From a virus (taxonomy: Duplodnaviria; Caudoviricetes), in the IMG/VR virus record IMGVR_UViG_3300021066_000062, positions 1-32,375 of that record: a stretch of 32,375 nt of DNA, one strand, 5' to 3'. The translations under genes and the position numbers were made by a program. The notes beneath the pieces were generated by a model. The model was given only the letters and a program-made list of their open reading frames with translations, was not told where the DNA came from and ran no database searches. This document shows, one piece after another, positions 2,353-32,364 of this stretch (positions are counted from its first letter, which is position 1; the number at the start of each line of letters is the position of its first letter).

Positions 2353-2362
2353 CGAGCCGTGA
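2090..2362 (+). CDS. Ribbon-helix-helix-like DNA-binding protein (90 aa)
   Basis: GGAGG 5 nt before GTG 2090; RRLYCRLSPTAHQRLLEVAQRTGATPGAVLDRLL fits the strand-helix-helix RHH pattern; GTGA-coupled to TerL. Confidence 0.55.
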   Translation: MNKRGSGERRKISSSAGFKPLWLTRDRRLYCRLSPTAHQRLLEVAQRTGATPGAVLDRLLRGLPAATLAETVAAQEDEDARAIAAWSDEP

Positions 2363-4020
2363 ACTGGGAGGAAGCTGGCCGGCTCTGCGGAGATCCCTAC
2401 CGATTCATCGGTGGGCTTCAGATCGCCGACAAGCGCGGCAAGCTTCGGTCCATGGCTCCGTTCTGGCCGGAGCAGCTCGACACGATCGCGGCCATGCTCC
2501 TGTTCGACAACGTGTTCGCGCTCAAGAGCCGCCAGCGCGGAATTACCACGGTGGTCCTCGGCTTCTTCTTCTGGCTGCTGTACTGCAGCCCGGACCCTGC
2601 CCACCTCATCAGCGTCACCCACGCGTTGTGGGCGCGAGGCTCGGTGAACAGCAAGCTCCGCCTGTTCCAGCGGAGGATGCCCGAGCCCCTGCCGAACGGC
2701 TTCGCCAAGGACTCCGCCGAATACCTGCAGCTCGCGCACAACAAGGCGGGCGCGGTGCAGATGGTGGCGGGCGGCCGCGGGCAGGGGCGGTCGTTTACCT
2801 TCCAGCATCAGCACTGGACGGAGATGGCCTACTATCCCGTAGGGAGCGCGGCGAACGCCAGCAAGCAGCACGACAAGGCGGCGGACCGCCAGGTGTGGGC
2901 GTCGGTCAACAGCACGGTCGAGTCCGCCCCCGGCCACAAGACGGTCATCGAGAGCACGGCGAACGGGCCCTACGGGCTGTACTACGAGATGCACGAGACC
3001 TCGCGCCAGAACCCGGCGGAGTGGGCGCACCTGTTCTGGCCGTGGTTCTACACGAACGACTACACGCGGCCCATCCGCGACCCGCACAAGTTCGTCGCCG
3101 AGCTGCGCGACGACGAGCGCCAGCTGCTCGAGCTCCACGGCGACGCGGGGCTGACGCTCGAGCACTTGGCGTGGCGGCGGCACCGCATCGAGGTCCTCGG
3201 GTACAAGCGCGAGCTCTTCCGCCTGGAGTTCCCTTCGGACGAGAACGAGCCCTTCGAGCTGTCCGGGGGGCTGTGGTTCGACGCCGACCGGGTGCGGGAG
3301 ATCGGCGCGCGCGCCACGCGCGAGGGGGCGCGCCTCTGCCCTCCGGGTGAGGCGTACGTCGAGATCGTGCCGCCCGAGCCGGGGCGCCGGTACTTCCTGG
3401 GCCAGGACACGAGCGGCGGCGTGGGCAAGGACTACGCGTCGGTGCAGGTCCTGCGCGACGACTTCACCCAGGTCGCCCGGTGGCGCTCCAACCGCGTCGG
3501 CCCGCGCGGCCAGGCCGAGCAGTCGGCGCGCATGAGCCTCCGGTACAACCGGGGGCGGATCAACTGCGAGCGCAACAAGTACGGGCACCAGGTCATCGCG
3601 CACCTGCTCGAGCTCGGCGCGCCGATGTGGGAGGACGACAAGGGCCGGCCGGGGTTCTGGACCCAGGGCGGATCGAACACGAGCAAGCGCTTCCTGTTCG
3701 ACTACGCGCGCGAGGTCATCCAGGCCGGGTTCTGCGCCCCGTCGGTCCCGGGCGTCGTGCCGGTCATCAGCTGCCCCGTCCTCGCCGCGCAGCTCGGCCG
3801 CGTGGCGGAGGGGGCCGACGGCAACATCCAGGTGGCCCGGAGCGCGGGCGTGAAGGTCGACGACGAAGAGGACCAGGAGACCCACGACGACGACGTCATG
3901 GCCTGGGTCCTGGCGCTGTGGTGCGGGCGCGAGCAGTTCCGCGGCCGCAAGGTCCAGCAATTCAAGCAGCCGACCGGGTTCCTCGGCGAGCTGCTCGCCA
4001 AGTATGGAGCGACGCCATGA
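2359..4020 (+). CDS. terL: Terminase large subunit
   Basis: Walker A-like ALKSRQRGITT, Walker B-like HWTEMAYY, coupling motif VIESTANG, RNase H-fold nuclease motifs LGQDTSGGVGKDYAS, NCERN and HDDDVMA. Confidence 0.95.
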   Translation: MNWEEAGRLCGDPYRFIGGLQIADKRGKLRSMAPFWPEQLDTIAAMLLFDNVFALKSRQRGITTVVLGFFFWLLYCSPDPAHLISVTHALWARGSVNSKLRLFQRRMPEPLPNGFAKDSAEYLQLAHNKAGAVQMVAGGRGQGRSFTFQHQHWTEMAYYPVGSAANASKQHDKAADRQVWASVNSTVESAPGHKTVIESTANGPYGLYYEMHETSRQNPAEWAHLFWPWFYTNDYTRPIRDPHKFVAELRDDERQLLELHGDAGLTLEHLAWRRHRIEVLGYKRELFRLEFPSDENEPFELSGGLWFDADRVREIGARATREGARLCPPGEAYVEIVPPEPGRRYFLGQDTSGGVGKDYASVQVLRDDFTQVARWRSNRVGPRGQAEQSARMSLRYNRGRINCERNKYGHQVIAHLLELGAPMWEDDKGRPGFWTQGGSNTSKRFLFDYAREVIQAGFCAPSVPGVVPVISCPVLAAQLGRVAEGADGNIQVARSAGVKVDDEEDQETHDDDVMAWVLALWCGREQFRGRKVQQFKQPTGFLGELLAKYGATP

Positions 4021-21477: not shown

Positions 21478-21481
21478 AGGG

Positions 21482-21513
21482 GTGCGGCAAAATTGTCGCA
21501 CCCGTGCTAGGCT
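21482..21513 (+). promoter_or_regulatory. Operator-like dyad GTGCGGC-AAAATT-GTCGCAC followed by extended -10 TGcTAGGCT
   Basis: Reverse complement has the same arms as 7752-7771; intergenic; TGnTAGGCT at 21505-21513. Confidence 0.55.
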
Positions 21514-25290: not shown

Positions 25291-25505
25291 CCATCCACGG
25301 AATCTGCGGCCTCTGCGGCGGAAGAGTAACCACTCCGTCCGTGTGGTTCGGCACGGTGCCGCCCGTCCCGACCTGCGAGAGCTGCGGTGCCATGGTGGCG
25401 TCCCACGGCCCGGTGCTGCCGATGGAGCCGCGGCGCCGGCCCGCGCGGACTGCGGTTGACCAACCGGACTTCTGGTCCCCGGTCCGTCATTGGAGCAGCT
25501 CGTGA
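25287..25505 (+). CDS. Small zinc-ribbon protein (72 aa)
   Basis: ATGA coupling; CGLCGG...VPTCESCG. Confidence 0.6.
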   Translation: MTIHGICGLCGGRVTTPSVWFGTVPPVPTCESCGAMVASHGPVLPMEPRRRPARTAVDQPDFWSPVRHWSSS

Positions 25506-25963
25506 ACCTCTCCCCCCACTTCACGCTGGCCGAACTCGCCAGGACCGAGGTGCGGGATCTGCAGCGCGCCAACTACGACGGCGCGTGCGGTCGCCTCGGG
25601 GCGCTGCGCTCCCTCGCCGGCTTGCTCGAGGAGGTCCGGAGCCTCCTGGGCGACCGGCCGATCGTGGTCCACAGCGGCTTCCGCTGCCCCGCCCTCAACC
25701 AGCGGATCGGCGGCTCCCCGTCGAGCCAGCACCTCCGCGGGGAGGCCGCCGATTGGCACGTGGTCGGGATGGGCCTGCGCGAGGCGTTCGACCGGATCCG
25801 GTGCTCGTCGCTCCGCTGGGGGCAGCTCATCCTCGAGGACGGCGACGGAGACGGCATCCCCACGTGGATTCACCTGTCGCTCGGCGCCCCGTGGCGGGCT
25901 GCCGAGCGGTGCCAGCAGGTCTACGAGTACGACGGGCGGGAGTACCGGCGGCTGGCGGCGTAG
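25502..25963 (+). CDS. Endolysin, peptidase M15 family
   Basis: LSPHFTLAEL, SGFRCPALN..IGG...SQHLRGEAAD, QLILE and WIHLS motifs (Zn ligands H, D, H); GTGA-coupled start with GGAG (alternative TTG start at 25490). Confidence 0.9.
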   Translation: MNLSPHFTLAELARTEVRDLQRANYDGACGRLGALRSLAGLLEEVRSLLGDRPIVVHSGFRCPALNQRIGGSPSSQHLRGEAADWHVVGMGLREAFDRIRCSSLRWGQLILEDGDGDGIPTWIHLSLGAPWRAAERCQQVYEYDGREYRRLAA

Positions 25964-25965
25964 CC

Positions 25966-26241
25966 GTGGCGGTGCCACGGTTCGACAGCCTCCCGAGCGG
26001 TCACCAGGTCACCTTCAGTGCCCACGCCCAGCGCCGCTGTCGCGAGCGGGCGATCTCCCGGCGTGAGGCGCTGCGCCTGCTCGGGCACACCCTCGGGCGC
26101 GACTGGGACCCGCACCGGCTCGAGGAGGGGTTCCGCGTCGAGGTGCGCACGCCCGCGCTCGTGGTCGTGGTCGCCGTCGGGGCGAACGCCTGGCACGTGC
26201 TGACGGTGTACCGGCCCGAGGTCGACGAGCCGGAGTGCTGA
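25966..26241 (+). CDS. DUF4258-like protein (putative RelE/BECR-fold ribonuclease, ~91 aa)
   Basis: FSAHAQRRCRERAIS and C-terminal VLTVY are DUF4258-type signatures. Start uncertain (GTG 25966 or 25972). Confidence 0.6.
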   Translation: MAVPRFDSLPSGHQVTFSAHAQRRCRERAISRREALRLLGHTLGRDWDPHRLEEGFRVEVRTPALVVVVAVGANAWHVLTVYRPEVDEPEC

Positions 26242-26287
26242 GGCTCGGCCGCTGCTCGAGCGCGGGAACGTCTCACCCGAGGCCGCC

Positions 26288-26866
26288 AAGGCGGTGGCAA
26301 ATTTGCCACCACCTACACCGCGTCCCCGTCGCCGCAAATTTGCGCTCACGGGAAGAGGAGCTTTCAGAGCTGAGACAGGCCGAAGCCGGTTCTGACGCTC
26401 CGTCCCCGTGAGCCTCAAATGAGGCTCACGGGAAGGCTCGACAGTTTGGCCCGTGCGGGCAAATTTGCCCGCACGGGCACCGTGCGCACCTTGGCGCGAC
26501 ACGTCGCCTCGAGGGAAGGCGAGACGTCTGCCCGAGCTCGGGGCGACGCGTCGTTCGAGGCCCTCCGAGACGTGACCTCGAGGCATGGGCGACGCGTCCC
26601 CGCCGGCGCCGCACGACGTGTCGCGGGAGGTCCTGGACGACAGGAGAGCTGTTGAGCCTTCCCGTTTGTCTAAAATTAGACCGACGGGGCAGGGCACCGA
26701 CGAGGCACCCCGTCTCCCTCAATTGAGGGAGACGGCCGGCGTGGCTGCGTAGGCGAGCGCAAATTTGCGCTCGCCTTGGGGGGATCGGTCGGAGAAACTG
26801 GAGCGCTCGCCAGAGCAGGCGCTGTCTCCGCTCATCTTCCCGTTGTGGCAAATTTGCCACAACGGG
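26288..26866. repeat. Array of eight 28-bp variable palindromes
   Basis: Units at 26288, 26325, 26405, 26450, 26661, 26709, 26750 and 26839; layout 5-bp end + 6-bp variable arm + 6-bp AT-rich centre + complementary arm + end; ends CCCGT/ACGGG in five, CCCGT/ACGGC in one, WAGGC/RCCTW in two. Confidence 0.9.
26495..26600. repeat. Degenerate ~23-bp tandem repeats (iteron-like, about 5 copies)
   Basis: CGASRCGT at 26497, 26520, 26544, 26566, 26590; YCGAGS at 26509, 26532, 26555, 26578. Confidence 0.65.
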
Positions 26867-26917
26867 AACGCAACGGGGATTCGTTGGCGACGCCGGAACC
26901 AGAACGCGCGATCTGGC

Positions 26918-27210
26918 TGCGTGTCCTTGCGTGTCGTCCTATGTGTCCTGGCCCACCCCGCGATCCACCCCCGGGACACATAGCGAACACATGGCGGCGT
27001 GTTTTGGCGTTTCGTCCGCGTGCGGTTGCGTCTCTCGCGCGAGCCGCGCATCCCGAAAAGGTGCAGGGATGCCCGGCCTAACCCCCGTCCACCGACCTAC
27101 CTCGATTTAAGTGGCTTGAGCCAGTCCTAGGCGTTCCACCCCCAACATGCTAGGGTTGCCTGGTCGCGAGACACATACAGGCCACATAGCCAGGGGGCGG
27201 CGCACATGGG
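26918..27210. other. Candidate attP region with integrase arm-type repeats
   Basis: CACATRS repeats at 26977, 26988, 27172, 27183, 27203 and an inverted copy at 26939-26948; paired copies 11 bp apart; directly upstream of the integrase. Core site not identified. Confidence 0.5.
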
Positions 27211-28492
27211 GAACCGAGGCGAAGGGGTATCGGTGGTGTCGATGGCGGCGGGCAAGTGGAAGCTCCGCTGGCGTGAGCGCGTCGACGAACGGTGGGCATC
27301 GAGGTCGCTCACGGTGGAGGGCGACAAGCTCGAGGCCGACCGGCTGCGGGTCGAGATCTTGACCGCGCTCCGCACGACCGGGCGCTACGACCCCCGCGCC
27401 TCTGCCCTGCTCGCACCTGAGGACACTGCGCCGGCCGACCTGGCGAAGCTGCTCGAGGACTGCATCAACGCTCGCACGAAGGCCGGGAAGTACCGCGGCA
27501 ACACGTCCGCCACCTATGGCGCGTACCGTCGCAGGTTCCTCGGGAGCGTCCGCGAGCTCGAGGGCCTAGGCGAGAAGGAGTCCGTGCCCGTCACCCTGCT
27601 CAGGCGCGAGCTGTTCGAGCGGGTCCACGCGCAGGACGCCGCGCGAGGAGCCGCGCAGGTGATCGCCTACGCGCCCTGTCGGTTCGTGCTGGACGCGTGG
27701 CGCTGGGCCCACGACGCCAACGAGGAGGCGGAAGCCGCGGACAGGTCGCCGCCGTGGCACCGCCTCCCGCCCGCGCCGCGCTCGGGGCGCGACTACCTCC
27801 CGCGCACGCCCCGCTACGGGCGAACGATCGCGCCGTCCCTGGCGCACGTCGACGCCGTGCTGCGCCGGCTCCGGGCGCGCGGGAAGGTGAACCACGGCAC
27901 GCGCATCGCCGCGCTGCTGATGCGGTTCACCGGCCTCCGCATCGCGCAGGTCTTCGGGATCTTGCGAGAGGACGTGGACCTCGCGGGCCGACAGCTCTAC
28001 GTGCGGGTCGGCAAGACCGACGCCGAGAAGGCGGACGCGCGAACGGTGCCGCTCTCCCGTCACCTGCTCGCCGAGCCCGGGTTCCGCGATTGGGTGGAGA
28101 GCTTCGAGGCTGGCTCGATCTTCCCGAAGCGGTCGCACCTGCAGCGCAAGGAAGGCAGCCGGGGGCGTGGAGCCGGCGACACGCTCCGCGCCGTGTGGGA
28201 GGAGGCGACGCAGGCCGGAGAGGTCCCACGTCACGTGTGGGCGCCGCCGAACCGCAGGCACGCACGCCCCGACCACGCATTCCGGGCCGCGTTCCAAGCG
28301 CACCTCGAGGAGCAGCGGATCTCGGGCGAGGTGATCGACTTCCTCGTCGGCCACGAAGGCGGCATCCGCGAAGTGCACTACGGCCGCGATCTGCTCAACG
28401 CCGCGACGGCCGCGGTCGACGCGATCCCGCCGGTGGACTGGACGGGGCCGCAAGCACCAGGGAACGTGGTGCAGCTCCACGCGCGAGCGTGA
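27206..28492 (+). CDS. int: Tyrosine recombinase/integrase (428 aa)
   Basis: Catalytic set R (FTGLR), K (VGKT), HxxR (HAFR), H (LVGH), Y (EVHY); N-terminal GKWKLRWRE arm-binding-like domain. Confidence 0.92.
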   Translation: MGNRGEGVSVVSMAAGKWKLRWRERVDERWASRSLTVEGDKLEADRLRVEILTALRTTGRYDPRASALLAPEDTAPADLAKLLEDCINARTKAGKYRGNTSATYGAYRRRFLGSVRELEGLGEKESVPVTLLRRELFERVHAQDAARGAAQVIAYAPCRFVLDAWRWAHDANEEAEAADRSPPWHRLPPAPRSGRDYLPRTPRYGRTIAPSLAHVDAVLRRLRARGKVNHGTRIAALLMRFTGLRIAQVFGILREDVDLAGRQLYVRVGKTDAEKADARTVPLSRHLLAEPGFRDWVESFEAGSIFPKRSHLQRKEGSRGRGAGDTLRAVWEEATQAGEVPRHVWAPPNRRHARPDHAFRAAFQAHLEEQRISGEVIDFLVGHEGGIREVHYGRDLLNAATAAVDAIPPVDWTGPQAPGNVVQLHARA

Positions 28493-30725: not shown

Positions 30726-31348
30726 GCGACCTCCCGAGCCAGCTCGACGCTCTCGGTGGCCACGGGCGCGGGCGCTGGCTCCATCCGCCTCAGCGTCCAG
30801 GGCTTGCCAGCCGCTTGCGCGCGCAGCGCCTCGTCGAGCATGTGGTGCAGAACCGCCGGCTCGACCCCCTGGGCGACGCGCACGAGCACGGCAACGCCCG
30901 CGTGTGCGACATCCTCGGGAGTAGGCTCCGGCTCCGGGGCTGGCGGAGGCGGGGGTGGCTGGCGCGCCAGGTCATCGAGCACCGGCTTGCGTCGGCGACG
31001 CGGCCTGCCGAGCGGGTTCGTGACCCCGCACTGCTCGAGCGCCTCGATCGCATTGTCTTCCACCCCGAGCTCGAACCCCGACGCGAGGGCGGCCCACAGC
31101 TTCGGCGGCAGACGGCCGGTCCACTGCTCCATGCGCTCCGACTCGGCCGTCCACTCGGCGAGGACCTGGTCGTAGGTCAGGCCTCCCATGGCCGTGTTCC
31201 AGCTCTCGGGCCCCTCGGCGGCCTCGATGTCGAGCAGCGCTCGGTGCTGCGCTCGCGCGAGTTCGAGCGCGTGTTCGCGCGTGCGCCCGAGGTGGAAGCC
31301 GCCAGATCCGTCGGCGGCGAAGAGGATGGTGAGGGCGACGGACTTCAT
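30722..31348 (-). CDS. Hypothetical protein (208 aa)
   Basis: GGAGGT RBS, ATGA coupling, GC3 bias. Confidence 0.75.
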   Translation of the reverse strand: MKSVALTILFAADGSGGFHLGRTREHALELARAQHRALLDIEAAEGPESWNTAMGGLTYDQVLAEWTAESERMEQWTGRLPPKLWAALASGFELGVEDNAIEALEQCGVTNPLGRPRRRRKPVLDDLARQPPPPPPAPEPEPTPEDVAHAGVAVLVRVAQGVEPAVLHHMLDEALRAQAAGKPWTLRRMEPAPAPVATESVELAREVA

Positions 31349-32364
31349 GGGGTACCTCCGGCGGGCGGCGGGGCGGGGAAGAGAGGGGTCGCGGGGATGG
31401 GGAGCGCGGCATCACGAGGGCGGCCCCAGACCCGGTAGAAGTTCCCGACCCCGCGTCGGCGCTTCTCCTTGGGCATGACCTCGATCCGCCAGATCACGTC
31501 CCCGTCCGGGATGTCCCGGTCCGAGTGCCTGGTGATGAACCGCCCGAGCTCGAACGAGTCGAACTCGCCGTCCGGCCCGGGCGCGATGGCGCGCAGACCT
31601 TCGTGCAACATCCGGTCACGCCGGGCGCGCTCGACCAGGTTGCTCGCGAGGAACCAGTCGTGTTGGAAGACGAGGAACGCGCTCGACGCGAGCCAGCGCT
31701 CGTCCGTTCGCTTCTGCCAGCGCAGCTTCGGCTGGTCGTCGAAGTAGCGGCGGCTGGCGATCTCGGCGATCTGCTCGTCGCGCTGGTCGCTCCGCGCCTG
31801 GTGCTCGGCCAGCTTGGCTTCGAGGCGTGCCCAGTACTGGGCTTCGCGACGCTCGGCCGCGTCGTTCAGCGTCGTCGCCAGCGCAGCGAGCTGCACGGGG
31901 GTGACGGCCTGCGTCGAGATCTGCGCCTGGCCGTCGAGCATCTGCGGGATCACGACCTGGGCGAGAACCTTCCGGAGCCGACGGCCTTCCTCCGTCCGGC
32001 ACAGCAGGCACGCCACGATCGCGGCATCACGTCGGATCAGCATCAGGGAGGGGGCGCGACTCGGCACTCCAAGCGTGCCGAGTTCCTTAAGAAGGCGAAG
32101 CTCCGCGCCTTTAACGACGCGCGGCGGGCACACGTCTCGGATCTCGTCGGACCAGTCGGTGGTGATGCTGGTCACGAACCGGTCCGCGACCGAGTGCCCG
32201 CAGGACTCGGCAACCTGAAGGGCAACCAACCACGGCTCGGGGTCGTCGGGGAACCAAACCGCCGACAGGCTGCCGTCGTCGAACGGGATCAAGGACTGCT
32301 TGAGCCGCACGCGCTCAAGGGCGGGCTGGAGCTCCGCAGGCCTGTTGTCGCGGGGCTCGCTCAT
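31345..32364 (-). CDS. BRO-N domain antirepressor-like protein (339 aa)
   Basis: IPFDDGSLSAVW...EPWLVALQVAESCG and CRTEEGRRLRKVLAQVVIPQM match BRO-N boundaries; early-operon position. Confidence 0.7.
   Translation of the reverse strand: MSEPRDNRPAELQPALERVRLKQSLIPFDDGSLSAVWFPDDPEPWLVALQVAESCGHSVADRFVTSITTDWSDEIRDVCPPRVVKGAELRLLKELGTLGVPSRAPSLMLIRRDAAIVACLLCRTEEGRRLRKVLAQVVIPQMLDGQAQISTQAVTPVQLAALATTLNDAAERREAQYWARLEAKLAEHQARSDQRDEQIAEIASRRYFDDQPKLRWQKRTDERWLASSAFLVFQHDWFLASNLVERARRDRMLHEGLRAIAPGPDGEFDSFELGRFITRHSDRDIPDGDVIWRIEVMPKEKRRRGVGNFYRVWGRPRDAALPIPATPLFPAPPPAGGTP

Follow-up and report, generated by a model that had tools for sequence, protein, structure and literature searches.

The described systems closest to the locus analysed here are ParB-parS and Noc-NBS, in which, according to the accessible parts of the sources, a protein with a ParB-CTPase fold and a helix-turn-helix (HTH) recognises a palindromic site and specificity is tracked by the recognition helix, including the position of R173 (PMC7383237, PMC12704722). 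Both S172 and R173 of Caulobacter ParB are described as contacting parS in the available portion of PMC7383237. The KorB-OB system of plasmid RK2 also involves a ParB-family clamp on a mobile element that acts distant from its loading site, at up to 1.5 kb in the section available (PMC11790492). Fusions of ParB to methyltransferases in phages are listed in section 7 of PMC12704722, where their function is given as unknown, and the word "palindrome" is absent from the accessible text of that article.

The DNA analysed here, referred to as the window, is a 32,375-base virus contig of a temperate phage in which an array of palindromes occupies positions 26288-26866. Its left neighbour is an endolysin gene (peptidase M15; 25490..25963, + strand) at which the late operon ends, with a small DUF4258-like ORF in between (25966-26241; E 6e-4, below the cut-off). 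A tyrosine integrase gene (int; 27206..28492, + strand) is a neighbour only, and the terminase large subunit is encoded at 2359-4020. The contig is probably incomplete, since it lacks a terminal repeat and the scan of 47 ORFs recognised neither a repressor nor a replication gene. Neither a ParB-family gene nor a zinc-finger-methyltransferase gene is encoded in this incomplete 32-kb window, which is also devoid of tRNA genes. A scan of the region found no sigma-70 promoter. Contigs from an RNA run (X4) covered parts of the array, as they did many other places at similar low depth. A 339-aa ORF without a family match (31345-32364, - strand), which has an antirepressor-like look, contains a 54-bp part (32051-32104) also present in another contig of runs X1 and X2.

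All eight units of the preliminary description are present, with centres at 26301, 26338, 26418, 26463, 26674, 26722, 26763 and 26852, each built from a 5-bp outer frame, a 6-bp arm and a 6-bp AT-rich centre. These are U1 (26288..26315; arm GGTGGC, centre AAATTT), U2 (26325..26352; asymmetric, left arm CGCCGC), U3 (26405..26432; arm GAGCCT, centre CAAATG), U4 (26450..26477; arm GCGGGC), U5 (26661..26688; imperfect arms TTGTCT/AGACCG), U6 (26709..26736; arm CTCCCT, centre CAATTG), U7 (26750..26777; arm GAGCGC) and U8 (26839..26866; arm TGTGGC, a perfect 32-bp palindrome). The six said to have fully complementary arms (U1, U3, U4, U6, U7 and U8) do have perfect 6-bp inner arms, U2 pairs at three and U5 at four of six positions, and only U4 and U8 are perfect across all 28 bp. 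The chimeric look ascribed to U2 is also real, as its right arm GCGCTC is identical to that of U7. Nine palindrome centres reaching 10 or more of 14 pairs were counted in 26250-26900, namely the eight units and one in the central block, against a chance expectation of 0.57 on average and 3 at most in 500 first-order resamples. Five of the six AAATTT hexamers in the window are inside the array. The eight arms all differ, with inner triplets falling into four classes, and the outer frame CCCGT/ACGGG is common to six of the eight units. Centre-to-centre spacing is 37-211 bp and the gaps of 9-61 bp between units contain no genes.

A check proposed in the preliminary description, a search of viral databases for the unit frame, returned eight stretches, five of them in genes encoding ParB-N plus HTH, at the linker before the HTH, and three in one capsid-encoding satellite family. 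Two protein scans added 160 loci (the best 80 of 327 and the best 80 of 105), and together with the first five these came down to 133 genes, among which a few near-duplicates remained; the HTH could be aligned in 131. The proteins are ParB-like by profile and predicted fold, and a DGRNR motif is conserved in the family. Perfect 6-bp arms occurred in 44 of 131 genes in the 78-base window before the HTH versus 4 upstream and 0 downstream in windows of equal size, and at a looser threshold the counts were 92 genes versus 21 and 17. The 92 palindromes have 70 different arms and lie in three reading registers (65, 24 and 3), so it is the symmetry of the DNA that is conserved and not the peptide. 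The link of the units to ParB coding patches, which the preliminary description had offered, was thereby confirmed in the form of a palindrome family inside ParB-CTPase plus HTH genes just upstream of the HTH, and the proposed search for matching cores in coding sequences likewise found unit-like palindromes in phage ParB-HTH genes.

The full own site was single and intragenic in all seven phage records considered (two complete), three of which had weaker partial matches. Thirty-eight of 69 C-terminal parts were methyltransferases (27 MT-A70, 8 N6/N4 and 3 Dam) and 31 of the 69 proteins had no recognised methyltransferase. One subgroup of the ParB-HTH genes (L030-L213) had a CCCGGG centre. The intragenic palindrome is not universal, since no clear AT-centred site was found in two cultured phages with distant ParB genes or in one Myxococcota ParB subclade (a subset of L255-L264). 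Among 26 genes from the Myxococcota phylum 21 passed the palindrome test and 11 of the sites were AT-centred; none held an exact unit, the best match being 19/28.

Units were ranked over 32,335 positions with a matrix from 83 gene sites, a set that does not include the five found with the window's own pattern. Six of the eight were placed in the top 11, with U8 first, U1 second, U4 fourth, U7 fifth, U5 eighth and U2 eleventh, and third place was taken by an isolated ninth site of the same family located directly past the stop of a 1524-aa gene (21478..21505). This ninth palindrome could also serve as a hairpin. The minority-type units U3 and U6 fitted poorly (ranks 651 and 208), and U3 has a stop codon in two gene registers. 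U1 matches the L032 site at 23/28 positions and the L170 site at 17/18 of the core, U2 and U4 are each 23/28 identical to a site (L022 and L027, respectively), U3 is 25/28 identical to one unit of the array in L110, the U7 core is 16/18 identical to L078, and U8 is 27/28 identical to the intragenic L024 site, with 16 of these positions preset by the search pattern. The array units are thus very probably binding sites for proteins of the ParB-HTH type, as judged from sequence.

Co-variation of recognition helix and arm was analysed in the 88 sites left after 43 of the 131 rows had been removed, 10 of them by hand, for being weak, off-type or near-duplicates. The top four corrected mutual-information pairs joined inner arm bases with positions +2, +3, +4 and +7 after the HTH turn. 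Arginine or lysine at +4 went with G at arm position 5 in 56/56 cases (other residues 6/25), alanine at +7 with T at arm position 4 in 15/16 (other residues 7/71) and asparagine at +2 with A at arm position 6 in 15/15 (other residues 4/63). Pairs of proteins alike in at least three of the four helix residues had 0.76-0.92 of inner arm bases in common in every backbone-identity bin, whereas for those alike in one helix residue at most the fraction was 0.33-0.40, also where backbone identity exceeded 55%. Supported branches yielded few independent pairs, with 4.7 of 6 (p 0.06) and 6.3 of 7 (p 0.03) concordant for two rules where the opposite outcome averages none, and the two remaining rules were not significant on such pairs (p 0.5 for both). 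Out of sample, in the 11 AT-centred sites from Myxococcota, the arginine/lysine rule held (4/4 versus 1/7) and the rule joining asparagine at +2 to A failed. In a profile and predicted-fold alignment the four helix positions coincide with the recognition helix of ParB/Spo0J, and +2 and +3 align with S172 and R173 of Caulobacter ParB. Because arm bases co-vary with the recognition helix, each ParB-HTH protein is likely to bind the palindrome in its own gene.

The preliminary description had placed four units on each side of a tandem-repeat block. A central block does lie there (26498..26622), although Tandem Repeats Finder does not report it; as a repeat it amounts to a two-copy 44-mer at 70%. 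It consists of six octamers 22-24 bp apart, in order GACACGTC, GAGACGTC, GACGCGTC, GAGACGTG, GACGCGTC and GACGTGTC, and six of the 11 octamer matches in the window fall within it. The block resembles the 5' coding repeats of zinc-finger-methyltransferase genes, with a short match of 91% over 32 bp (E 1.3e-4) to L242, where a prophage gene (L242:1391-2329) encodes a zinc finger and a DPPY-type methyltransferase and has 5' coding repeats that match the octamers. This family has at least 4503 members and no Pfam or PHROG match, and it is predicted from its motifs to be a methyltransferase. The zinc finger was present in 112 of the best 120 members. At least two D[ATVG]S repeats were counted in 21 of the 46 members with an N-terminal extension among these 120, and the density of the motif was 0.035 per residue versus 0.001 in the catalytic domain. 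The N-terminal repeats, frequent in the family, are encoded by short palindromic DNA octamers, which the zinc finger may bind. The central block is therefore an independent pointer to a second family that combines DNA binding with a methyltransferase.

Another contig of run X1 (8.2 kb) shares the central block at about 94% and lacks the rest of the array, which indicates that the block moves as a module. The block pattern had no match in viral contigs, and a DNA search of 182 class-level genomes gave short weak matches in 52, with L242 and L239 the informative ones of six loci examined. L239, which is from a Myxococcota genome, has a non-coding octamer cluster (1500-1590) at a distance of about 1.2 kb to a tRNA-like end. 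Replication iterons had been considered for the central block and were dropped upon the zinc-finger-methyltransferase match.

Twenty-four two-unit matches were obtained from metagenomes, of which 12 (approximately eight groups) were clusters of differing symmetric units, another 10 proved to be asymmetric or tandemly repeated, L120 was ambiguous and the last was the window's own contig. Clusters were located on a primase-bearing element (L121), near a tRNA-like end read by eye (ARAGORN reported no full gene), on satellite-like, capsid-bearing elements (L110 and L128), on short contigs (L114, L116, L130 and L131) and at a gene end before parA (L111, L126 and L129). In the last group the gene is a treble-clef zinc-finger gene, at the 3' end of which ParB-type palindromes alternate with GTTAC/GTAAC repeats (L126:1820-1895, L129 and L111). 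The L110 cluster (985-1265), flanked by a TIR-domain gene and a capsid-bearing module, comprises about 8-9 palindromes centred on CAATTG/CAGTTG. No ParB-family gene was found in the 28 loci scanned, many of them short. In both L130 and L131 a single frame has been duplicated and holds three symmetric cores that differ from one another, and a compensatory pair distinguishes the sister satellites L001 and L023; this suggests selection on both diversity and symmetry. The capsid gene of L001 holds in its linker an extra full palindromic site (L001:4633-4660) that L023 lacks, suggesting that the position of a site does not matter.

The neighbouring integrase had been proposed to act on the units, and this was not supported by its relatives, most of the named ones from Myxococcota/Deltaproteobacteria. 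The 19 loci with relatives, which are 31-64% identical and thus distant, four having little upstream DNA, are all without an array, and no relatives were found in viral contigs. A paired ACAC- or CCCCACA-type repeat immediately precedes int in most of the 15 relatives displayed. Similar repeats in the window lie at 27167-27190, 26973-26995 and, inverted, 26920-26948. These repeats are probably arm-type integrase sites of attP, the left ones (26920..26995, ACAC-type, inverted and direct) outside the array and the right ones (27167..27190, + strand) paired ahead of int; no exact position for the attP core was obtained in the window. The array would thus lie just outside attP, ending about 55 bp short of the inferred arm and 340 bp before int. 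Relatives L003-L021 insert at the 3' ends of various protein genes and in one case of a tRNA-Met gene, and the paired arm repeats upstream of int vary in sequence among them. Rearrangement between units, which had also been anticipated, was not seen, as the order was the same and joints were absent in contigs of three DNA runs, a form of assembly that hides rare variants. Two of these runs may be the source of the window.

We tentatively propose, with confidence falling a little short of even, that the array recruits the predicted self-marking enzymes of other elements onto the DNA of this phage. The region forms a non-coding, one-of-each collection resembling sites in foreign ParB-HTH and zinc-finger methyltransferase genes. 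A ParB dimer would bind the site in its own gene and close as a CTP-dependent clamp, and the clamp would then slide and methylate or coat nearby DNA, its action thereby being confined to self. By showing many specificities the array would attract clamps from several co-resident phages and load them, so that this phage would acquire foreign methylation with no need for enzyme genes of its own. Integration would place the array at the prophage end opposite int. Recruitment is favoured over a sponge or a promoter sensor because both parts of the array trace to genes combining DNA binding with a methyltransferase, the variants are single and position is seemingly free. Of the options in the preliminary description, the one supported is a library of site variants for the proteins of other phages, given the palindromes in ParB-HTH genes and the co-variation with the helix.

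In broader terms it is possible, though somewhat less likely than not, that phages mark their own genomes by means of self-addressed methyltransferase clamps and that other phages and satellites steal the modification with non-coding collections of such addresses, drawn from at least two unrelated protein families. Under that same proposal, a single gene may hold the recognition helix together with its DNA site, which lies a few codons further upstream, following a simple residue-to-base code. If true, this would explain what the common phage ParB-methyltransferase fusions do, point to conflict among phages and between phages and satellites at a level carried by DNA alone, and provide many natural, mutually orthogonal pairs of protein and site whose code can be read. 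Possible uses include region-limited methylation and orthogonal ParB/parS labels.

Recruitment and titration are not separable by sequence, and the array could still act as a decoy or a sensor. As a decoy it would titrate ParB-type and zinc-finger proteins off the genomes of competing phages and impair them, which we regard as unlikely but worth serious consideration. The evidence on site identity, that is the helix co-variation and the matrix ranks, fits a decoy equally, clusters recur in satellite-like elements dependent on helper phages and a sliding clamp could make even one site a catalytic sink; a single copy per variant, however, would be a weak sponge, and a rival phage has its own site in cis.

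A role as a sensor, where clamps of foreign origin load at the array, extend across attP and the promoter of int in the manner of KorB and alter integration or excision when a competitor enters, is rather unlikely. It draws on the short distances from the array to the attP arm and int, on the L121 cluster near a tRNA-like end and on the L110 cluster, which precedes a gene. The L001 sites between and inside structural genes and the location of the ninth site in the late operon do not fit, integration would part the array from int, and the ends of elements are in any case the usual location of accessory DNA.

The array would be the phage's own centromere if the unassembled part of the genome encoded one relaxed ParB-like protein that reads the shared CCCGT/ACGGG frame. 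This is improbable, although the frame of most units is rare in gene sites (3/83) and the incomplete contig may be missing its own ParB or methyltransferase gene, as the inner arms differ at just those positions that track helix residues, records that encode ParB have one full site and not arrays (7/7) and the other array loci have no ParB gene. Also at odds with the co-variation is the idea that the units are cassettes donated by gene conversion to the hypervariable linker in ParB genes, another option of the preliminary description and a very improbable one. In the gene register six units do translate into uninterrupted linker peptides, and flanking gene codons are retained in the L121 and L131 clusters, but U3 and U6 contain TGA in the main gene register, the recipient gene is absent from the contig and a site swapped without its helix would break the match, site and recognition helix changing together while the array has no helix codons.

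There is scarcely any likelihood that the array is unselected debris of captured gene fragments, or RNA or cruciform hairpins. Folding of the region is strong (z -9.1), which is to be expected of any cluster of palindromes, but the symmetric diversification in duplicated frames and the compensatory change between sister satellites speak against debris, three weak Rfam matches were all far below threshold, the single terminator-like site is at the chance level seen in shuffles, and the hairpins suggested previously leave the co-variation with a protein helix unexplained. Least credible of all are shufflon-like 11-6-11 substrates of the adjacent tyrosine integrase, for which adjacency, geometry and the chimeric U2 can be cited, against the 0/19 relative loci, the separate arm repeats, the identical order and absence of joints in contigs of three DNA runs and the occurrence of the motif far from integrases elsewhere.

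Several known repeat classes share features with the array. Xer/dif and lambda-type att sites have the 28-bp length and the 6-bp centre, whereas the units have no conserved arm sequence or link to an integrase family, and variation in their arms follows a ParB helix. REP/MITE repeats are short palindromes that occur in clusters, but dispersal in genomes of the host phylum, which would have refuted the earlier interpretation, was 0/5 for a single unit and 0/401 for two units, and no transposase is nearby. The array was rightly described as not CRISPR-like, as centre spacing is irregular and no cas or tas family was found among the 47 ORFs; constant repeats at a regular period, as in a TIGR array, are likewise lacking. 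Integron attC sites have RYYYAAC/GTTRRRY ends with cassette ORFs between them, unlike the CCCGT/ACGGG ends and gene-free gaps of the array. An intragenic site in a regulator's own gene was reportedly described for HK022 Roi by Clerget and Boccard in 1996; that protein belongs to a different family, its site has a different geometry and is linked to IHF, and there is no methyltransferase link.

No description of intragenic ParB self-sites or of mixed foreign-site arrays was found in the literature searched, subscription papers and supplements lying outside its scope, and the available portions of PMC13229309 and bioRxiv 2024.03.22.586370 contain nothing on such sites. The ParB-methyltransferase fusions in the accessible text of PMC12704722 are the proteins whose genes contain the palindromes. 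KorB acts from copies of one operator on its own element in the available part of its description, whereas the units here all differ and the proteins are apparently foreign. Compared to ParB-parS and Noc-NBS, the gene sites are 6-6-6 with an AT-rich spacer, are located in their own gene, are single-copy and are highly diversified, and many of the proteins carry a methyltransferase. The array, with eight different arms and not the repeated single consensus for one ParB that defines a parS array, mixes specificities on a contig that has neither parA nor parB. Its parts therefore resemble ParB/parS, and the mixed foreign-site array, a form of molecular freeloading, would be the novel element if confirmed.
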